Sequence record: NC_031934.1
Length of the DNA stretch: 64,000 bases
Direction: 5' to 3' (one strand)
Source: Escherichia phage MX01
Shown: in pieces, positions 4,982 through 60,669 of the stretch
How positions within the stretch are numbered: the stretch's first letter is position 1
How the letters are laid out: every line of letters starts with the position of its first letter
The notes under the pieces: generated by a model
What the model was told of the DNA's origin: nothing
What the model saw: the letters and a program-made list of their open reading frames with translations, nothing else
Databases searched by the model: none
Made by a program: the position numbers and the translations under genes

Positions 4982-5536
4982 TCAGTTCCTGTAGAACCGG
5001 AATGGGTTTATGTGGAAGGCTAACATAGCCTTAGGGATTTTACGAGACAAAAGACTCTTAAGTTTCCAACCACAGTATACACGAAGGTAAAAGGTAATCC
5101 CACCTACTTTAAGATACGGAACTGAAGCAAAGACTCCCCATGCTTCGTCATTCCACATCCATAACCATCCATGATGAGCTTTATCAGGAGAACCGGATTC
5201 AACGTCAGGATTACCACGATAATGGAATTCTGAGCTACAATCGCGTCCAAGTTTATGGTAAGCAAAGTTATAAGCTTTATTTCGCCACAGCCAAGCTACT
5301 CTCTGGAGATAAACACCGCCAGGCATTTTCCTGATTTTAGCCCAACGTTTAATATGGCCTTTGTCACCGTCAATTGGATTATCGTATGTCATCATCCAAT
5401 CAAAGCCATAAGGCAATTTACCGGTCTTTTTATTATGAAAAGGGACTACAAAAGGTGCAAGGATAACAGCCAGAACCATAGAGATAAAATCTAGAGGGAC
5501 CAACAGTACCCAACTCAAATATTTTAAAAGTTTCAT
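4982..5536 (-). CDS. hypothetical Trp-rich protein with N-terminal transmembrane segment
   Basis: 184-aa ORF; N-terminal hydrophobic stretch LSWVLLVPLDFISMVLAVILAPFVVPF; AGGAAA RBS; late promoter upstream. Confidence 0.55.
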   Translation of the reverse strand: MKLLKYLSWVLLVPLDFISMVLAVILAPFVVPFHNKKTGKLPYGFDWMMTYDNPIDGDKGHIKRWAKIRKMPGGVYLQRVAWLWRNKAYNFAYHKLGRDCSSEFHYRGNPDVESGSPDKAHHGWLWMWNDEAWGVFASVPYLKVGGITFYLRVYCGWKLKSLLSRKIPKAMLAFHINPFRFYRN

Positions 5537-5835: not shown

Positions 5836-5910
5836 TGGTATCCCGCCCTGGGATCGAACCAGGACCGCAAACTTAGAAGGATCGTATGCTATCCATTACA
5901 CCAGCGGGAC
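5836..5910 (-). tRNA. tRNA-Arg (anticodon TCT)
   Basis: Minus-strand reading GTCCCGCTGGTGTAATGGATAGCATACGATCCTTCTAAGTTTGCGGTCCTGGTTCGATCCCAGGGCGGGATACCA; cloverleaf with TTCGATC T-loop, anticodon loop CTTCTAA, encoded CCA. Confidence 0.85.
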
Positions 5911-5915
5911 ATAGT

Positions 5916-5992
5916 TGGTGACCCGGACCAGATTTGAACTGGTAACCTTTCCCTTATGAGGGGACTGCTGCTAACCATTGAGCTACGGGGCC
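5916..5992 (-). tRNA. tRNA with CAT anticodon (Met, or Ile via lysidine)
   Basis: Minus-strand reading GGCCCCGTAGCTCAATGGTTAGCAGCAGTCCCCTCATAAGGGAAAGGTTACCAGTTCAAATCTGGTCCGGGTCACCA; T-arm ACCAG-TTCAAAT-CTGGT, anticodon loop CTCATAA; one acceptor-stem mismatch. Confidence 0.7.
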
Positions 5993-7132: not shown

Positions 7133-7318
7133 TTACTCACCTTTTGCAATTTTATCCATAACGATAGCGATTAAACCGATTAGAAATGCTACTACCAATG
7201 AGATAGAATTTTCTGTTGTTGTCAGTAGTCCACAAATGAATCCTACAAACATCGAAAAACTAAAAGCCATTGAAGCAATTACTACAGCAACATTACGAAT
7301 CAGTTCAGCGCGTTTCAT
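7133..7318 (-). CDS. small membrane protein
   Basis: 61 aa, two hydrophobic helices; RBS GAGGAGAAT. Confidence 0.5.
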   Translation of the reverse strand: MKRAELIRNVAVVIASMAFSFSMFVGFICGLLTTTENSISLVVAFLIGLIAIVMDKIAKGE

Positions 7319-7346
7319 TTTATTCTCCTCAGTAGTTGATAGGGTA

Positions 7347-7376
7347 ATAGTATCACTACCCTATCTAAAAGTAAAC
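7347..7376 (-). promoter_or_regulatory. early-type promoter GTTTAC-N18-TGaTACTAT
   Basis: Minus-strand reading GTTTACTTTTAGATAGGGTAGTGATACTAT; -10 sits in the loop of a 6-bp stem AGGGTA/TACCCT. Confidence 0.45.
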
Positions 7377-7387
7377 GGTTTTATAAA

Positions 7388-7696
7388 CTATTTTATTCCG
7401 CGTGATGCAATCGTATTCTGCCGTTTAACGCCAGTTTGTTTAAAGTTATGATTGTCGAGTTGATCGGTACGAGCAACTCCGAATGATGATTTAATCTTAG
7501 CTTTAGATCCTTTAGTTATAGAAATATACATCTCGGGAGCCCCTTTCTTAAAGTCCGAAGCAATTACTTCAACACCGTTCTTAGCAAGTGACTTCAGAAT
7601 TGCTTCCGCATACTCATCATCAAGACCCGCTTGAGTATGAATAATGAATGTCTTTGGTGCAGCCGCTTCATTGATAAATTCTTGATATGTTTTCAT
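7388..7696 (-). CDS. internal protein (ip) with capsid-targeting N-terminus MKTYQEFINEA
   Basis: Begins MKTYQEFI, the conserved leader of T4 internal proteins IPI/IPII/IPIII (from memory); ATG 7694-7696 preferred over the track start. Confidence 0.65.
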   Translation of the reverse strand: MKTYQEFINEAAAPKTFIIHTQAGLDDEYAEAILKSLAKNGVEVIASDFKKGAPEMYISITKGSKAKIKSSFGVARTDQLDNHNFKQTGVKRQNTIASRGIK

Positions 7697-7730
7697 TTTG
7701 ATTTCCATTTAGTTTTGTTTTGATAGGGCT

Positions 7731-7760
7731 ATAGTATCACCACTAAAGCCCGTTGTAAAC
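7731..7760 (-). promoter_or_regulatory. early-type promoter GTTTACA-N17-TGaTACTAT
   Basis: Minus-strand reading GTTTACAACGGGCTTTAGTGGTGATACTAT. Confidence 0.45.
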
Positions 7761-7762
7761 AA

Positions 7763-8035
7763 TTATTTTAAATAAATTGCATACTTTTTATAACCAGCTG
7801 TTTCGTGACGTAGCCCTTTTTCATTAGCAAAACGTTCAATATTGTTAATTTGATTCTGGTCAAGTTCTGAAGTATCAAATACAAAAAAGTTTCGCTTATT
7901 GCCTAAAGTTACGTGATTAGTCAAATCGATGTTATAGAGATGATTTATATCATCAATCATAGTCTTAACAGATTTGTTAATTTTTACTTCCTCATTAAGA
8001 ATAGATTCAGCGATAAATTCTTGATAAGTTTTCAT
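7763..8035 (-). CDS. internal protein, ipI-position homolog, with capsid-targeting N-terminus MKTYQEFIAES
   Basis: Same MKTYQEFI leader; sits immediately after 57B as ipI does in T4; about 35 bp of 5' coding sequence plus leader near-identical to the 7388-7696 gene. Confidence 0.65.
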   Translation of the reverse strand: MKTYQEFIAESILNEEVKINKSVKTMIDDINHLYNIDLTNHVTLGNKRNFFVFDTSELDQNQINNIERFANEKGLRHETAGYKKYAIYLK

Positions 8036-8058
8036 TTTGATTTCCGTGCGGTTAGTTT

Positions 8059-8100
8059 GTTTACAAGGTCTATAGTATCATGCCTATAGACCTTGTAAAC
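8059..8100 (-). promoter_or_regulatory. early promoter inside a perfect 17-bp inverted repeat (promoter/stem-loop cassette)
   Basis: GTTTACAAGGTCTATAG-tatcatgc-CTATAGACCTTGTAAAC; the minus strand carries GTTTAC-N17-TGaTACTAT. Confidence 0.5.
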
Positions 8101-8111
8101 ACCTTTTTAAA

Positions 8112-8789
<678 letters not shown>

Positions 8790-11522: not shown

Positions 11523-11530
11523 TATTTATA
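11523..11530 (-). promoter_or_regulatory. late promoter TATAAATA for gene 4 (divergent partner)
   Basis: Plus-strand tatttata; the two late promoters sit back-to-back between GGAGGCAC RBS regions. Confidence 0.6.
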
Positions 11531-38058: not shown

Positions 38059-38486
38059 TGTTCCTTATCCCTGATGATTACGAATTAACTCTAGAAAGTG
38101 TAGAGGCCAAAATTCCAGAAGCACAGGGACGTTTTGCTGCTCTTTCTGAAGCGCTCGAGAAAAGCGATATAAATAATCTTGTAGAGAACATGATTGCTGA
38201 AGGCGATATCGAATGTGCTATCGCTCTTGGTTCTTTAAATGAATCAATGGCTCTTAACGAATTTATCGTTAAACACGTTTCCTCTAAAGGTGTGCTTACT
38301 CGTACTAAAGATATTAAAACCCGTCAACGTAACGCATTCCAAACGACAGGTTTATCTAAAGCAAAACGCCGTCAGATTGCTCGTAAAGCATCTAAAACCA
38401 AACGTGCTAACCCGTCTACTCAAGTACGTGCCGAACGTAAGCGTAAGAAAGCCCGTTCTAAACGTAAAGCTTTTGGACTTAACTAA
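38058..38486 (+). CDS. 68: gp68 prohead core protein
   Basis: 142 aa with basic C-terminus; position between 67 and 21. Confidence 0.8.
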
Positions 38487-39121
38487 TGAAACCTGAATTG
38501 CTCATCGAACATTGGGGACAACCAGGTGAAATTATCGATGGGGTTCCTATGTTGGAATCTCATGATGGAAAAAATTCTGGGCTTGCTCCCGGCCTTTATA
38601 TAGAAGGCATTTTCATGCAAGCAGAGGTAGTTAACCGTAATAAACGCCTTTACCCAAAACCTATTTTGGAAAAAGCCGTTTCTGATTATATGGCAGAACA
38701 GGTTGCTACTAAACAAGCTTTAGGAGAATTAAACCATCCACCTCGTGCTAACGTTGACCCCATGCAAGCTGCTATCATTATTGAAGATATGTGGTGGAAA
38801 GGTAATGATGTTTATGGACGTGCACGTATCATCGAAGGTGACCATGGCCCGGGTGACAAACTAGCTGCAAATATCCGAGCTGGCTGGGTTCCTGGTGTTA
38901 GTTCTCGCGGTCTTGGTTCTTTAACTGAAACCAATAAAGGATATAAGCGTGTAAACGAAGGTTATAAATTAACCGTCGGTGTTGATGCAGTATGGGGACC
39001 ATCTGCTCCTGATGCTTATGTAACTCCAAAGCAAATTACAGAATCACAAACGGTAGAAACCGATACCAGTGCCGATGACGCCTTTATGGCTCTCGCAGAG
39101 GCCATGAAAAAAGCGTTATAA
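38486..39121 (+). CDS. 21: gp21 prohead core scaffold protein and protease
   Basis: 211 aa; position between 68 and 22. Confidence 0.9.
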   Translation: MKPELLIEHWGQPGEIIDGVPMLESHDGKNSGLAPGLYIEGIFMQAEVVNRNKRLYPKPILEKAVSDYMAEQVATKQALGELNHPPRANVDPMQAAIIIEDMWWKGNDVYGRARIIEGDHGPGDKLAANIRAGWVPGVSSRGLGSLTETNKGYKRVNEGYKLTVGVDAVWGPSAPDAYVTPKQITESQTVETDTSADDAFMALAEAMKKAL

Positions 39122-39151: not shown

Positions 39152-39967
39152 ATGCTTAAAGAACAACTGATCGCCGAAGCACAGAATATTGATGCTTCCG
39201 TTGCTCTTGATAGTATTTTCGAATCAGTTAATATTTCTCCGGAAGCAAAAGAAACTTTCGGCACTGTATTCGAAGCTACCGTCAAGCAACACGCCGTGAA
39301 ACTGGCTGAATCTCACATCGCTAAAATCGCTGAAAAAGCGGAAGAAGAAGTCGAGAAAAATAAAGAAGAAGCTGAAGAAAAAGCCGATAAGAAAATCCAA
39401 GAAGCTGCCGGTCGTTTCCTTGACCACGTTGCTAAAGAATGGATGGCTGAAAACCAGCTGGCTGTTGATAAAGGTATTAAAGCCGAACTGTTCGAATCCA
39501 TGTTGATGGGTATGAAAGAACTGTTTGTTGAACACAATGTGGTTGTTCCAGAAGAAGCAGTAGATGTTGTTGCTGAAATGGAAGAAGAGCTCCAAGAGCA
39601 GAAAGATGAAACCGCTCGTCTGTTCGAAGAAGTTGGTATGCGCGATGCGTATATTAATTACGTACAGCGTGAAGTTGCTGTTACGGAAGCAACTAAAGAC
39701 CTGACCGAATCTCAAAAAGAAAAAGTCAGTTCTCTGGTAGAAGGCATGGATTATTCCGATGCATTCGGTAAAAAAATTGGCGCTATTGTTGAAATGGTTA
39801 AAGGTCAGTCTGACGTTGGAACCCCAATCACCGAAGCCGCTATAAATAAAAATGTAGACGATGCTGCGGCACTGAATTACATTTCAGAAGCAGTTGAAGA
39901 AAAAGGCGCTAAGCCTACCCTGTCCTTCGCGGACCTGTCTGCAATCGCAGCATCACGAATTTCTTAA
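39152..39967 (+). CDS. 22: gp22 prohead core scaffold protein
   Basis: 271 aa acidic coiled-coil protein upstream of gene 23. Confidence 0.85.
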   Translation: MLKEQLIAEAQNIDASVALDSIFESVNISPEAKETFGTVFEATVKQHAVKLAESHIAKIAEKAEEEVEKNKEEAEEKADKKIQEAAGRFLDHVAKEWMAENQLAVDKGIKAELFESMLMGMKELFVEHNVVVPEEAVDVVAEMEEELQEQKDETARLFEEVGMRDAYINYVQREVAVTEATKDLTESQKEKVSSLVEGMDYSDAFGKKIGAIVEMVKGQSDVGTPITEAAINKNVDDAAALNYISEAVEEKGAKPTLSFADLSAIAASRIS

Positions 39968-46312: not shown

Positions 46313-47809
46313 ATGCAAATTCAAGTACATTTCGATAATTTTAGTCATGTTCGTATTGAGTGTGATGAATCCACATTCTACGAACTCAGAGACTATTTTA
46401 GCTTTGAAGCTGATGGATATAAATTCAACCCTAAATTTCGTTATGGTCAATGGGACGGACGTATTCGCCTTCTGGATTATAATCGTAAACTTCCTTATGG
46501 ATTGGTTCCGCAGATTAAAAAATTCGCTGAACAATTTGAATACTCTCTGTGGATTGACCCACGTATTCTTGAACAGGAAGATATTTCTCGTGAAGATTTT
46601 GACTCATGGGTGGCATCTCAAGAAATTTATTCAGGGTCTACCAAGATTGAGCCCCATTGGTATCAGAATGAAGCCGTATACAACGGCCTGACAAAACGTC
46701 GTGCAATTCTGAATTTACCTACATCCGCAGGTAAATCATTGATTCAGGCGCTCTTGAGTCGATATTACGTTGAGAACTATGAAGGTAAAATCCTTATTCT
46801 GGTTCCTACTACTGCACTCGTTGACCAGATGATTAATGACTTCATCGATTATCGTCTGTTCCCTAAAGCAGCAATGCTGGGTATTCGTTCAGGTACTGCT
46901 CGTGATTCTGATGCAATGATTTACGTTTCGACTTATCAAACTGCTATTAAGCAACCTAAAGAATGGTTTGCTCAGTTTGGTATGTTTATGAACGACGAAT
47001 GCCATTTGGCCACAGGTAAATCAATTTCTACTATCATCGAAGGCCTAACCAACTGTATGTTTAAATTCGGTTTGTCTGGTTCTTTAAAAGATGGTAAAGC
47101 TAATTTAATGCAATATATGGGTTTGTTTGGTGATGTGTTTAAGCCAGTATCCACCTCCCAGTTAATGGAAGAAGGACAGGTTACAGACCTTAAAATCAAC
47201 AGTATTTTCCTTCGATACCCAGACGAATTCACTGTTAAGATGAAAGGTAAAGATTACCAATCAGAAATTAAAGTCATTACTAAGGCTACTCGTCGTAATA
47301 AATGGGTTGCTAATTTAGCTGTTAAACTCGCTAAGAAAGAAGAGAACGTATTCCTGATGTTTAAAAACATCGAACACGGTAAAACTCTTTTTGAAATGGT
47401 TAAAGAGCAACATAAAGAAGTTTATTACGTATCAGGTGAAGTTAATACCGAAACGCGTAATGCTCTGAAAGTAATGGCGGAAAATGGTAAGGGTATTATT
47501 GTTGTGGCAAGTTATGGTGTGTTCTCTACTGGTATTTCCGTTAAGAACCTTCACCACGTTGTATTTGCCCATCCAGTAAAATCTAAAATCATTGTACTCC
47601 AGACAATTGGTCGTGTACTCCGTAAACATGCCTCTAAATCAACAGCACAGGTGTGGGATATCATTGACGACATGGGTGTTAAGCCTAAATCAGCTACGGC
47701 TAAAAAGAAATATGTTCATTTGAACTACGCCCTCAAACACGCTTTAGAACGTATTCAACGTTATGCTGATGAGAAATTTAATTACGTAATGAAACAGGTG
47801 GATTTATGA
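46313..47809 (+). CDS. uvsW: UvsW DNA/RNA helicase
   Basis: ...VHFDNFSHVRIECDESTF..., Walker A LPTSAGKS and MNDECHL box match recalled T4 UvsW. Confidence 0.95.
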   Translation: MQIQVHFDNFSHVRIECDESTFYELRDYFSFEADGYKFNPKFRYGQWDGRIRLLDYNRKLPYGLVPQIKKFAEQFEYSLWIDPRILEQEDISREDFDSWVASQEIYSGSTKIEPHWYQNEAVYNGLTKRRAILNLPTSAGKSLIQALLSRYYVENYEGKILILVPTTALVDQMINDFIDYRLFPKAAMLGIRSGTARDSDAMIYVSTYQTAIKQPKEWFAQFGMFMNDECHLATGKSISTIIEGLTNCMFKFGLSGSLKDGKANLMQYMGLFGDVFKPVSTSQLMEEGQVTDLKINSIFLRYPDEFTVKMKGKDYQSEIKVITKATRRNKWVANLAVKLAKKEENVFLMFKNIEHGKTLFEMVKEQHKEVYYVSGEVNTETRNALKVMAENGKGIIVVASYGVFSTGISVKNLHHVVFAHPVKSKIIVLQTIGRVLRKHASKSTAQVWDIIDDMGVKPKSATAKKKYVHLNYALKHALERIQRYADEKFNYVMKQVDL

Positions 47810-48033
47810 AAACCTTTAAAGAAGTTATTCAGGAAGCATCTATTGAAAGCTTCATGTCTAAAATTAGTTCTTGTCAGACCATGGACGGTCTGGAGGAATT
47901 GGAGAAGTATTACAAAACTCGTAGTAAGGAAGCCGAACTTCGTGATTCGGATGATATCAGCGTACGCGATGCATTGGCTGGTAAGAGAGCTGAATTGGAG
48001 TCGATGGACGACGAGGAAGAGGAAGATTTCTAA
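47806..48033 (+). CDS. uvsW.1: UvsW.1 small acidic protein
   Basis: 75 aa; ATGA overlap with uvsW. Confidence 0.75.
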   Translation: MKTFKEVIQEASIESFMSKISSCQTMDGLEELEKYYKTRSKEAELRDSDDISVRDALAGKRAELESMDDEEEEDF

Positions 48034-56497: not shown

Positions 56498-58620
56498 TAC
56501 ATTTTGAATTTATTTGATAAAGAAGAGATGTCCAAAGATGCAGCAAGGATTTCCATAGCTTCGTTGCTTTCAGAAACGGATTCATTAACCAAGAATTGAC
56601 TGAATCCATCCATCAGGCGAACTTCACCAGTTTCCATCAAATGGTCACCATCGTAAACAGATTCGCTGAGCTCTGAAGGAGGTGTTACGGTAGCTTCCAT
56701 AAGGTATTTGTGAGATACTCTATCATTCATGGCAAAAGCTGCTACTTTATCAACCTTCAACAATAATCCACGCGGAAGGATAATTTCTGCTTCTTCGGCA
56801 TATTCTGTAAGGTCACCAGGAGCGATAACTTTAACTGCTTCAGCACCTCGAATAACCATACCAATTTCAGCAATTCTATCTGCAGGACCTTCAGGTGCAA
56901 TTGGATTACCAAACTCGTCTTCTTCCCATTCTACCTCTTCATCATCGACTTCACCCACATCAGATGAACTACCGCTAGCCAATTTAAACAACTCATCAGC
57001 GGAGGATAAAGAACCTTCACCACCAACAAAAACGGCTTGGTTGTCGAGGGCCATATAATTTTTACCAAATTCGCCAAAGATGTTAGGCTTTAATGAGGCT
57101 GACACAAAGTTCTTAAAGTAAAATGTTTTGTTATCGATATTATGACGCAGAATTTTGTATGGCAAATCCTGACCACGATACAAAATAGTACCCTTAGGAA
57201 GTTTAATACCCTTAGTAAATGCTGAGTCTAAATCCTTAATCAATTTAATAGCCGTTGTATTGTTTTCGGATTCAGGTTTACCTAAAAGGAACAAGTTCAT
57301 AGGAGCATATTCAGCTGCGCAATATTCAATAATAGCATTGCTTTCGTCTTTGGTTAGGCCCTTAGGTTTAATGAGCTCACCTGAATAAGCATATGCATCA
57401 CTAATAGAATCGTTAATTAGTTTATAAACGGCTTCCATAGCGAAAGCAATTCGGGATGCTTTCTCTGAAGGGGAGCCTTTAAAACGGGTACTCAGGTTAT
57501 TAACAATTTTCTTAATAATATCCAGACTATTGGTTGTATTGATTTGCGAAAGGCCACTTAAAAGTCTATCGACTTCTGTATTAAAAAATGCCATATTATT
57601 AGAGTAAATTTCAAACCCTTGTTTATCTCTATTAGCATAATTTAGTTTAAATTTACTATCAGTCATTAAAGCGTGTGTGAGAGCAATAGTGTATCTAAAG
57701 TTGGCAAGGTCCTCGCTCTTAGATTTAAACTGAGAAGCCTGGCGCATTTTGGTAATAGCACCTTTTTTAAAGTTCTGACTAATCTGTTCAATACCTTCGT
57801 TCTCAGGGCCTTCAGCCGTGTGAACCGGTACAGAAGCTTCAAACTCGTTATAAACCTGCAATTCTTTAGGGGACAAAGTTTCAGGCTCAGCAGTAGAATA
57901 CTGCGCCGCCGCTGCCATACGACGCGAAATCTTAGTACGAGTAATGACAGCCTTATCAGTACGTTTCTCTTCAACTTGTGCAATAGATGCCGCTACGGCT
58001 TCGACCTTACTTACGGCCTGGCCGGTTTTCTTAGAAACATACACTTCGCCAACTTTAGACTCAACTTTAGTATAAAGATCGGCATTAATTTCAGGCATAC
58101 CCTTGATATCTTCAATATTAGCACCACGACGTACTAAAAGAACGTAGGTATGTTTTCCGCTGAATTGGAACATGTCGTCAACAACTTTAAACTTACCACC
58201 GGTACGAGCCATAGCCAAGCGAGCTAATACGCGCTGAACGGTAGGACCTTTACCTTTCATTTTCTTAGTAGGGAAACGGAACAAAACCGCGTCCATTTTA
58301 AGTTTGTTTATTTGTTCATATATGGTATCGAAAATGGTGTTCAGTGTACCGAGTGGATCGGTACCCAAACCACCCTTGAGTTCTGCCGGAGCGCCTTTAG
58401 CAGATAAACTCATTAAGATAACATGGACGTACTTATCACCCGGCTTAACCATTTTAATAGCATCGCCTTCAGACGCGTATGAAACCATACGCGCTACTAA
58501 ATTGTCATTACCAGGAGCATGGACCGCAAAAATCTGCGGTACGCCCGAGCCAGGTTTAAGATTTGTTACTGGGTAATTTTTTTTATCGCTTTTATCAAAA
58601 ACTTCGTTTAAATTTTCCAT
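56497..58620 (-). CDS. alt: Alt-like ADP-ribosyltransferase paralog 3
   Basis: 707 aa; conserved N-terminal 230 aa; C-terminal R-S-ExE pattern (ILYRGQ, FYFKNFVSASL, EAEIILPRG). Confidence 0.8.
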   Translation of the reverse strand: MENLNEVFDKSDKKNYPVTNLKPGSGVPQIFAVHAPGNDNLVARMVSYASEGDAIKMVKPGDKYVHVILMSLSAKGAPAELKGGLGTDPLGTLNTIFDTIYEQINKLKMDAVLFRFPTKKMKGKGPTVQRVLARLAMARTGGKFKVVDDMFQFSGKHTYVLLVRRGANIEDIKGMPEINADLYTKVESKVGEVYVSKKTGQAVSKVEAVAASIAQVEEKRTDKAVITRTKISRRMAAAAQYSTAEPETLSPKELQVYNEFEASVPVHTAEGPENEGIEQISQNFKKGAITKMRQASQFKSKSEDLANFRYTIALTHALMTDSKFKLNYANRDKQGFEIYSNNMAFFNTEVDRLLSGLSQINTTNSLDIIKKIVNNLSTRFKGSPSEKASRIAFAMEAVYKLINDSISDAYAYSGELIKPKGLTKDESNAIIEYCAAEYAPMNLFLLGKPESENNTTAIKLIKDLDSAFTKGIKLPKGTILYRGQDLPYKILRHNIDNKTFYFKNFVSASLKPNIFGEFGKNYMALDNQAVFVGGEGSLSSADELFKLASGSSSDVGEVDDEEVEWEEDEFGNPIAPEGPADRIAEIGMVIRGAEAVKVIAPGDLTEYAEEAEIILPRGLLLKVDKVAAFAMNDRVSHKYLMEATVTPPSELSESVYDGDHLMETGEVRLMDGFSQFLVNESVSESNEAMEILAASLDISSLSNKFKM

Positions 58621-58623
58621 TAT

Positions 58624-60669
58624 TTACCCTTGGATGAATTTTTCTGGGATTTCGTCAAAATTAATACATGAAGCTAAAATAGGCATTATATCCACCTTGG
58701 TCGATTTGACAAATGAATCAAAAGACACAGGGTTGTCGGTCTCTGTTTCTACACCTTGGTAAACAACCAATTCGCCTGTTTCCATCAATGCATCGCCATC
58801 ATAGATAACCGCATTTTCTGCTAGTTGGTCTGTGGTCTGGATATCTGCTTCCAATAATTTGGTGTTGTAGTTTCCTTTATATGAGGCATCAGTAATTTTA
58901 GTAATCTTAACTGTAGTTCCACGTGGAAGAATAACCTCTTGTTCTGTTGGAGAACCTGACAATTCACCAGGCATAATTACGTTAATAGAGTCTGCACCAG
59001 AAATTTTCCAGCCGATGTTCATCATTGTATTTTCGGAACTCGTCAGCATACTTGGAAGAACAATTTCATTATCGCCTTGGAAAGATGTCCCAGCGCGATA
59101 GTCTTGATGTACTGCTGCCATTGCGACGTTTGATACCCAGCCGCCAAAGATAATTGGCTTAAGGGACGTTGATACATAGTTCCTGAAATAAAACAATTTT
59201 GAGTGTTTGATTTTATCAAAAGTGTTAACATTTAAATATTGCCCACGCCAAAGTGTAATATCAGGTGGCAATTTATGGCCAATTTCAAATGCCGCATCCA
59301 TATCGTTAATTACTTCAATTACACGCTGGCTATCAATGAATTCTGCATCCTCTTCATAATAATTACCCAACAAATAATTATTAACATCGGTATAATATTG
59401 GCCACAATAAGAAGAAATAGCCTCACGCTGCTCATACTCAAATCGATTATCGCTATAACCGGCTGTAAAATGCATAAGACTTTCTGATGCTTCATTAGCA
59501 AAGTCGGTAACAGCAGCACTTATACGTTGAGCATACTCTTGTTCCCAAAGCTCTGCTGCATATTCTGACGCATCCATATTAGGAGGGGCCTCATTCACTT
59601 TTCTTTCGATAAATGCAGCTTTGCGAAGGTTAAGAATCTCTGCACATGATTCGGCAAAAATCTGCATCTGCTTCATACTGCCAACAGGAGCACGTTTAAG
59701 TTCACGATGCATACGGTTAAAAATTGGGTCAGAGTCTTCGACTCGAATTTCTTCTTTCCAAACACCATTTGCTCGCATAGCCGTATCTGCCGCGCGCATA
59801 CGGTCCATAGTATTCGTTTCAGAAGGTCGAACAAAAATTTCTAGTTCTTCATAATCATCGATAAGTTCTGCCGTAGCCGGTCGACTAAACTTAGCAGCTT
59901 CTGCATCAATTTCGTCCCAACCTTCCGGAACTTCATCTCGAGGAGAATACTGGGCTGCGGCCACAGCACGCCTAGAAATCTTGGTAGTAGTAATAACAGC
60001 CTTATCCGTACGTTTTTCTTCGACTGCCGCTATACTAGCAGATAGTGCTTCTATTTTGGTTACTGATTGGCCGGTTTTCTTAGAAACATAAACCTCACCA
60101 ACTTTAGACTCAACCTTAGTGTAAAGGTCTGCATCAATTTCAGGCATACCTTTTATGTCCTCAATATTAGCTTGTTTACGAACCAGTAAAACGTATGTAT
60201 GTTTGCCTGTAAATTGATACATATCATCGACAACTTTAAACTTGCCGCCAGTACGAGCCATCGCCAAACGTGCCAATACACGTTGAACAGTAGGACCCTT
60301 ACCTTTCATTTTCTTGGTAGGGAAGCGGAAAAGAACTGCATCCATTTTAAGTTTATTTACCTGTTCATATACCGTATCGAAAATGGTATTCAATGTACCA
60401 AATGGGTCAGAACCTAACCCACCTTTCAACTCGGCTGGGGTACCCTTAGCAGACAAACTCATTAGAATAACGTGGACATATTTGTCGCCTGGCTTAACCA
60501 TTTTAATAGCGTCTCCTTGAGACGCATAAGATACCATACGAGCAACCAAGTTATCATTACCTGGTGCTTGGATAGAGAAAATCTGTGGAATACCGGAACC
60601 TGGTTTAAGATTTATTACTGGATAGTTTTTAGCGGAATCACTATCAAAAACTTCGTTTAAATTTTCCAT
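58624..60669 (-). CDS. alt: Alt-like ADP-ribosyltransferase paralog 2
   Basis: 681 aa; same N-terminal module; ITLWRGQ, FYFRNYVSTSL, EQEVILPRG. Confidence 0.8.
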   Translation of the reverse strand: MENLNEVFDSDSAKNYPVINLKPGSGIPQIFSIQAPGNDNLVARMVSYASQGDAIKMVKPGDKYVHVILMSLSAKGTPAELKGGLGSDPFGTLNTIFDTVYEQVNKLKMDAVLFRFPTKKMKGKGPTVQRVLARLAMARTGGKFKVVDDMYQFTGKHTYVLLVRKQANIEDIKGMPEIDADLYTKVESKVGEVYVSKKTGQSVTKIEALSASIAAVEEKRTDKAVITTTKISRRAVAAAQYSPRDEVPEGWDEIDAEAAKFSRPATAELIDDYEELEIFVRPSETNTMDRMRAADTAMRANGVWKEEIRVEDSDPIFNRMHRELKRAPVGSMKQMQIFAESCAEILNLRKAAFIERKVNEAPPNMDASEYAAELWEQEYAQRISAAVTDFANEASESLMHFTAGYSDNRFEYEQREAISSYCGQYYTDVNNYLLGNYYEEDAEFIDSQRVIEVINDMDAAFEIGHKLPPDITLWRGQYLNVNTFDKIKHSKLFYFRNYVSTSLKPIIFGGWVSNVAMAAVHQDYRAGTSFQGDNEIVLPSMLTSSENTMMNIGWKISGADSINVIMPGELSGSPTEQEVILPRGTTVKITKITDASYKGNYNTKLLEADIQTTDQLAENAVIYDGDALMETGELVVYQGVETETDNPVSFDSFVKSTKVDIMPILASCINFDEIPEKFIQG

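Follow-up and report, generated by a model that had tools for sequence, protein, structure and literature searches.

The Ip9 and Ip7 internal-protein genes of Escherichia phage MX01 and the cassette structure of their locus

Two genes of already-named internal-protein families

We analysed a stretch of 64,000 nucleotides of Escherichia phage MX01 (NC_031934.1), called the window in what follows, and in particular two adjacent small genes at 7388-8035 that belong among the internal head proteins of T-even phages. An original prediction on this DNA had pointed to two open reading frames (ORFs), at 7763-8035 and 7388-7696, that both start with MKTYQEFI(A/N)E. Both are present at these positions, on the minus strand, and correspond to the families Ip9 and Ip7. 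The two genes and their leader codons are the following (aa, amino acids).

7763-8035, minus strand: Ip9 gene, an ORF for a 90-aa precursor that starts MKTYQEFIAES
8006-8035, minus strand: Ip9 codons 1-10, the capsid-targeting sequence MKTYQEFIAE with its terminal I-A-E gp21 motif
7388-7696, minus strand: Ip7 gene, an ORF for a 102-aa precursor that starts MKTYQEFINEA
7667-7696, minus strand: Ip7 codons 1-10, the capsid-targeting sequence MKTYQEFINE with its terminal I-N-E

The product of the first gene matches phrog_7673 ('internal head protein') over positions 1-90 of 90 (E = 2e-56). It is 96-99% identical to the proteins annotated Ip9 in phages WG01 and IME08, 79% identical to the Ip9 of RB15 (UniProt Q38376), and 74-96% identical to 15 cluster representatives. 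Its mature part is matched in 191 deposited phage genomes, and the copy of Salmonella phage ABTNLS3 is 100% identical to the one in the window. Judged by these homologies, the gene at 7763-8035 is a member of the already-named Ip9 family. It is like the Ip9 of T-even phages (RB15/K3) in length (90 aa), leader, locus and full-length homology, and the differences are allelic only. The name Ip9 is said to have been introduced by Repoila et al. in 1994.

The start of the second gene needs a comment. There is an in-frame ATG upstream of it, at 7708, but this codon lacks a Shine-Dalgarno sequence and nearly all homologues begin at MKT, which is why we place the start at 7696. The product matches phrog_2667 ('internal head protein') over its full length (positions 1-102, E = 2e-41) and is 95% identical to the Ip7 of WG01; its homologues in general show 66-95% identity. 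Its mature part shares 90% identity with that of T2 ip7 and is matched in 282 phage genomes, including those of T2 and CC31, with many Klebsiella phages at around 45% identity. By the same kind of comparison, the gene at 7388-7696 is a member of the already-named Ip7 family. The Ip7 proteins of T-even phages (T2, CC31, WG01) are like it in length (102 aa) and homologous to it from end to end, and T2 ip7 adjoins trna.4 as does the Ip7 gene of the window. Leaders vary within this family (MKTYQEFINE, MKTFKEFINE, MKTYKEFIAE), and the one in the window has N at position 9.

Two further observations concern relatives of Ip7. The 'ip7 protein' of Escherichia phage OLB35 (P0029), of 77 aa, has an Ip7-like N-terminal part and an Ip9-like C-terminus (...IKSSF followed by DENQFNNIQRFANDKGLRHEPGGYKKYAIYLK). 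It appears to be a chimera, which suggests that recombination or deletion may occur between adjacent cassettes within coding regions. Separately, Dhakavirus phages carry an Ip7 paralogue (around 46% identity) at a second locus, around 11 kb upstream of the ipI locus; it lies at 59147-59407 in IME08 (NC_014260) and at 57554-57814 in JS10, and the corresponding region of MX01 falls outside the window.

The leader that the two genes have in common was proposed to be the T4 capsid-targeting sequence, and the alignment with T4 IPII/IPIII bears this out: 10 of the 10 residues are identical in Ip9 and 9 of the 10 in Ip7, residue 9 being the sole difference. Neither leader equals the 19-residue one of T4 IPI, MKTFKEFTSTTTPVSTITE. 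A degenerate pattern for the leader DNA has exact matches at these two sites only in the 64 kb, while shuffled sequences lead one to expect 0.02. In T4, according to a review of the experiments of Mullaney and Black (PMC9026906), residues 1-10 of IPIII are enough for packaging, even of foreign proteins. Targeting is affected by leader residues 4 and 7, and processing by residues 8 and 10 (PMC9026906). Both leaders have Y4, F7, I8 and E10, and residues 8-10 form a gp21-type site, (L/I)-x-E, which reads I-A-E in Ip9 and I-N-E in Ip7. The Ip9 family alignment shows no variation at I8 and E10, and that of the Ip7 family little or none.

Beyond the leader the two proteins are unrelated in sequence, as had been suspected: BLASTP aligns residues 1-11 only. 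We rejected a remote relationship as well, given that hhalign, run with the alignments of both families, aligns the leader region only.

Promoter/stem-loop modules and cassette exchange at the ip locus

The order of genes on the coding strand is gene 1 (deoxynucleoside monophosphate kinase), 57A, 57B, Ip9, Ip7, trna.4, trna.3 and trna.2. The locus is closest to that of Dhakavirus phage WG01 (93.9% nucleotide identity) and, on sequence similarity, is that of a Dhakavirus-like, T4-like phage. The proposal that the genes occupy the ipI position next to 57B proved right, because the interval from 57B to trna.4 is the ipI slot of T4; in T2 the same interval carries ip5 and ip7. The flanking genes and the three modules that separate the genes of this interval are listed here (CBASS, cyclic-oligonucleotide-based anti-phage signalling system).

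8112-8567, minus strand: 57B, of the Acb1 anti-CBASS phosphodiesterase family, 84% identical to T4 57B (Pfam Acb1, E = 8e-59)
8058-8101, minus strand: module upstream of Ip9 and directly downstream of 57B, an early promoter over an 18-bp perfect inverted repeat
7715-7762, minus strand: module between Ip9 and Ip7, an early promoter over an imperfect stem-loop
7338-7376, minus strand: module that separates Ip7 from trna.4 and bounds the Ip7 cassette on its downstream side, with GTTTAC then GTGATACTAT and a 12-bp stem
7133-7318, minus strand: trna.4 homologue, a 61-aa predicted membrane protein, 84% identical to T4 Trna.4 (phrog_1692, E = 1e-32)

Given that 57B is of the Acb1 family, the ip locus lies in an anti-defence neighbourhood.

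All three intergenic regions, upstream of Ip9, Ip7 and trna.4, hold a T4-type early promoter that overlaps a stem-loop. The promoter has the form TTTAC(A/T), a spacer of 16-17 nt, and TACTAT preceded by TG. In the module at 8058-8101 the elements are TTTACA, a 16-nt spacer and TACTAT with TG before it (promoter match from 8099 to 8072); this region also has a terminator-like match and folds with an energy of -28.2 kcal/mol (z = -8.0). The module at 7715-7762 has TTTACA, a 17-nt spacer and TACTAT, again with TG before it (promoter match from 7759 to 7731), and a fold energy of -16.7 kcal/mol (z = -4.2); the direct-repeat families D1, D2 and D5 tie it to the other two. The third module, at 7338-7376, has the repeats D1 and D2 and a fold energy of -16.4 kcal/mol (z = -3.1). 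All three can be aligned with the module that precedes ipI in T4.

These elements resemble the promoter-early stem-loop (PeSL) cassettes, the mobile regulatory cassettes of T4-type phages (Arbiol 2010, PMC2839356; Comeau 2014, PMC4122927). In the T4/PST group, they are defined as an early promoter TTTACW, N17, TAYWAT overlapping a stem-loop (PMC4122927). By its sequence features, the element at 8058-8101 is a PeSL-type promoter/terminator module. The likeness to PeSL cassettes extends to the overlap of promoter and stem-loop, to the position between small variable ORFs of the hyperplastic region, and to the match with rearrangement breakpoints. The difference is that in the window the homology available for exchange continues past the ribosome-binding site into leader codons 1-10, so that coding sequence is part of the recombination module.

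This extension is seen in a direct repeat. A near-identical stretch of around 35 bp had been noticed at 7672-7706 and 8012-8046. The repeat is real, but it is larger than this and its second copy is shifted by 1 nt: it spans 40 nt at 7667-7706 and 8006-8045, with 93% identity, and takes in the ribosome-binding region (GGAAATCAAA) as well as codons 1-10. Much of this identity would be expected anyway from the identical peptide and the common ribosome-binding site.

We compared the ip locus with those of eight relatives: WG01, IME08, NC-G, ABTNLS3, G4498, ESCO47, T2 and T4. From 57B to trna.4 the genes are arranged as follows.

Window: 57B, Ip9, Ip7, trna.4
WG01: 57B, two more leader-bearing ORFs, Ip9, Ip7, trna.4
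IME08: 57B, two more leader-bearing ORFs, Ip9, trna.4 (Ip7 absent)
NC-G: 57B, Ip7, Ip9, trna.4
ABTNLS3: 57B, Ip9, trna.4
G4498: 57B, Ip9, Ip7, one more ip, trna.4
ESCO47: 57B, Ip7, Ip9, one more ip, trna.4
T2: 57B, ip5, ip7, trna.4
T4: 57B, ipI, trna.4

The content or order of the locus is unlike that of the window in all eight, and the order of Ip9 and Ip7 is inverted in NC-G and ESCO47. The breakpoints of BLASTN homology with the relatives fall at 7336-7359 (against NC-G, ABTNLS3 and ESCO47), 7667-7731 and 8003-8062, all of them within the promoter/stem-loop/leader modules. Against WG01, the homology of the Ip9 cassette stops 3 nt past the start codon, and homology to the region upstream of ORF146 starts inside the leader codons, leaving a 26-bp overlap at 8013-8038. 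Such a pattern would be the trace expected of a crossover within the leader-coding repeat. The position of the breakpoints within the modules matches the published model of shuffling of PeSL cassettes and of the ip locus (PMC4122927). The common promoter/stem-loop/leader module would provide the homology for recombination, and by this route cassettes may be swapped, deleted and reordered between related phages. The idea of cassette shuffling at the ip locus reportedly goes back, according to later papers that cite it, to Repoila et al. in 1994. The window is another allelic combination at a locus whose shuffling has been known since 1994 and was reported anew in 2010-2014, and brings no new family, architecture or principle. 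Ip9 and Ip7 are already-named and annotated families, and the original prediction, though correct and soundly interpreted, is a rediscovery of these families and of a known evolutionary mechanism.

Predicted packaging, processing and function of Ip9 and Ip7

The head-assembly genes whose products are expected to handle the leaders are also present in the window.

38486-39121, plus strand: gp21 prohead protease, expected to remove the leaders, 88% identical to T4 gp21 over 212 aa (Peptidase_S77, E = 2.8e-103)
39152-39967, plus strand: gp22 scaffolding-core protein, the presumed leader-binding structure, 77% identical to T4 gp22 (Pfam T4_CASP, E = 7e-90)

We propose the following scenario. Ip9 and Ip7 would each be transcribed from their own T4-type early promoter, embedded in a stem-loop, and the ten-residue leader would bind the gp22 scaffolding core, by which the precursor would be built into the prohead. 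The gp21 protease would then cut after Glu10, between I-A-E and S in Ip9 and between I-N-E and A in Ip7, leaving mature proteins of 80 and 92 aa trapped with the DNA. In the next infection the mature proteins would be delivered along with the DNA, ahead of all phage gene expression, and would most probably inactivate one particular defence enzyme of the host by binding to it. This enzyme might, in analogy to T4 Ip1, Ip2 and Ip3, be a modification-dependent nuclease (type IV, GmrSD-like). To our knowledge, internal proteins are the only T-even anti-defence factors already present when the DNA enters. We hold it likely that Ip9 and Ip7 are packaged, processed and injected internal proteins, given the match of their leaders and cleavage motifs to those of T4 and the presence of the protease and scaffold genes.

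With cleavage after Glu10, mature Ip9 is predicted to have 9.4 kDa and an isoelectric point (pI) of 6.8, and mature Ip7 to have 9.9 kDa, a pI of 9.7 and 15 lysines and arginines. The AlphaFold2 model of Ip9 has a predicted local distance difference test (pLDDT) score of 80 and the arrangement helix-strand-strand-helix-strand-strand. For Ip7 the overall pLDDT is 58, with a core at residues 15-60 around 78 and a tail at 66-102 below 50. The C-terminal tail of Ip7 is basic and, according to this model, probably disordered.

The proposed function follows from what is known of other internal proteins. The T-even internal proteins form a diverse set that counters host defences and has only the targeting sequence in common (PMC3012670). 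Each of the three T4 proteins Ip1, Ip2 and Ip3 inhibits a different GmrSD type IV restriction enzyme, and they share the leader alone (Silas et al. 2025, PMC12373910). The closest parallels in leader are IPII and IPIII, the inhibitors of GmrSD(ECOR21) and GmrSD(ECOR17), whose leaders are identical or nearly identical to those of Ip9 and Ip7, with the same cleavage motif and a similar context of promoter and ribosome-binding site. They differ in that their mature regions are unrelated to Ip9 and Ip7, their locus is another one (next to gene e in T4), and their targets are known. The closest parallel in position is IPI/IPI*, the inhibitor of GmrSD(CT596), which occupies the same slot between 57B and trna.4, has the same kind of promoter/stem-loop upstream, and is of similar size. 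The original prediction had called the two proteins 'candidate injected anti-defence effectors of unknown specificity', which equals the current published view (PMC3012670, PMC12373910). We give about even weight to Ip9 and Ip7 being specific anti-defence inhibitors and to their not being so; the more precise proposal, that their target is a GmrSD enzyme, is drawn by analogy and is the more doubtful of the two.

Several observations weigh against this scenario, and some of them speak for other explanations. To begin with, packaging, cleavage, injection, anti-defence function and target are all things that we infer for Ip9 and Ip7, and a literature search on the two families found no report of a processed protein in the virion or of injection. 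The T4 late-promoter consensus (TATAAATA) does not occur directly upstream of Ip9 or Ip7, the nearest copy on the same strand being at 11523-11530, and therefore the supply of the proteins during head assembly would rely on early synthesis or read-through. Early promoters with no late one nearby would suit an alternative in which the leader is a hitch-hiking recombination module and Ip9 and Ip7 are ordinary early cytoplasmic proteins that are never packaged. The same holds for the small proteins, described below, that have an Ip9-like domain but no leader that can be recognised. Set against this, the protein sequence of the leader, I8 and E10 included, is conserved across members whose DNA has diverged, and the ten-residue leader packages foreign proteins in T4 by itself (PMC9026906). 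We regard this alternative as very improbable.

Another point of the same kind is that the basic, disordered tail predicted for Ip7 would also fit non-specific DNA binding. Ip9 and Ip7 could then be mainly structural passengers, which would neutralise the charge of the packaged DNA, organise it or help to eject it, and would have no particular target in the host. The high pI of mature Ip7, its basic residues and its long tail modelled with low confidence are consistent with such a role, and T4 heads contain around 1000 internal-protein molecules embedded in their DNA (PMC3012670). However, mature Ip9 is neutral and is predicted to have a compact fold, and T4 Ip1-3 proved to be specific inhibitors. 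Furthermore, the presence of the two genes varies among close relatives (ABTNLS3 lacks Ip7 and T4 lacks both), which speaks against a structural role that the phage depends on and in favour of accessory functions tied to particular hosts. Taken together, this makes structural passengers an improbable account of the two proteins, and we return to the reading of Ip9 and Ip7 as injected inhibitors.

As for their target, comparisons at the level of sequence and structure offer little help and count against this reading. Scans of Ip9 and Ip7 with Pfam, NCBIfam and PADLOC gave nothing above noise, and a sequence search of the PDB with the two family profiles gave no match. The mature proteins resemble neither IPI* nor any solved structure, and showed no homology to Ip1, Ip2 or Ip3 that would place them among the GmrSD inhibitors. 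The folds predicted by the models are generic small alpha/beta sandwiches and are uninformative. Finally, in a screen of ip4-10 against 15 GmrSD groups there was no reproducible inhibition (Silas et al. 2025, PMC12373910); an apparent effect of ip7 on CLS_011 failed on repeat (PMC12373910). A type IV nuclease as the target of Ip7 and Ip9 is therefore only an analogy.

Ip7 and Ip9 occur in hundreds of sequenced phages of Escherichia, Salmonella, Shigella, Enterobacter and Klebsiella, and it is reasonable to consider them as candidate determinants of host range in T4-like phages used for therapy.

Ip9-like domains and other leader-bearing genes

A profile search for relatives of Ip9 among 1.84 billion representative proteins returned only 19. 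They fall in three groups: small proteins whose N-termini resemble the leader but have diverged (MKFNEFLTEA, MKSFKEYLTES, MKTFQEFLNEA, MKSFKEFVTES), small proteins in which no leader can be recognised, and an 861-aa protein (P0036) with the Ip9-like domain at residues 662-734. The conserved core of this Ip9-like family (P0030-P0047) consists of GNKRNFF.FD, then NIER, then G.R.E..G.KK.AI. In the 861-aa protein the usual C-terminus of its family resumes after the Ip9-like segment, which therefore looks like an insertion.

A second large protein with this domain is gp082 (755 aa) of the Kuttervirus phage maane, a Salmonella phage (NC_049508; 473-2740). Its residues 671-736, close to the C-terminus, are 36% identical to Ip9 (pairwise E = 8e-12) and match phrog_7673 (E = 2.4e-8). 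CBA120 orf111 shares 81% identity with this protein over residues 1-679, after which the two sequences part; orf111 lacks the Ip9-like domain. Homologues of the N-terminal body of gp082 in Limestonevirus are annotated 'confirmed structural protein'. These matches suggest that the Ip9 domain may also be carried in the virions of an unrelated phage family, the Ackermannviridae, and give an independent hint in favour of the scenario proposed above.

The domain in Kuttervirus bears on a further alternative, in which Ip9 and Ip7 are packaged and injected but counter a defence other than GmrSD, such as another nuclease, an abortive-infection sensor or nucleotide signalling, possibly acting on the incoming DNA end. 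Kuttervirus phages carry a DNA modification different from that of T-even phages, and the neighbourhood of the ip locus, with acb1 as its anti-CBASS gene, is not specific to restriction. The lack of reproducible inhibition by ip4-10 of any GmrSD group tested points in the same direction. On the other hand, all three internal proteins of known target inhibit GmrSD enzymes, and the diversity of these enzymes is very large, with 15 groups sampled only. We consider a target outside GmrSD possible, if somewhat unlikely.

One could go further and see in the mature Ip9 domain a portable effector delivered by the virion, which T4-like phages would load by means of a cleavable leader and Kuttervirus by insertion in a structural protein, and whose target would be a defence common to the phages that infect Enterobacteria. 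This is a speculative extension to which we give little credence. If true, the Kuttervirus fusion would be a second, independent handle on the target of Ip9.

Further leader-bearing genes were searched for in the 64-kb window, and there are none apart from the leader-like start of a UvsW.1 homologue (phrog_1143). This 75-aa protein is encoded at 47806-48033, on the plus strand, directly after uvsW, and begins MKTFKEVIQEA. This start is similar to the capsid-targeting leader and shares its I8 and E10, but its position 7 is V rather than F, and the likeness is probably a coincidence.

Outside the interval between 57B and trna.4, leader-bearing ORFs that start MKTYNEFL.E are found between e.8 and the tRNA/trna.2 region in WG01 (722-1186 of its stretch; 154 aa) and IME08 (1075-1692; 205 aa). 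The region from e.8 to trna.2 in the window has no leader-bearing ORF; it holds a different ORF, of 184 aa, at 4982-5536. There are two tRNA genes between e.8 and trna.2, for Arg-tct and Met-cat (5836-5992, minus strand), whereas T4 has eight and IME08 has three annotated.

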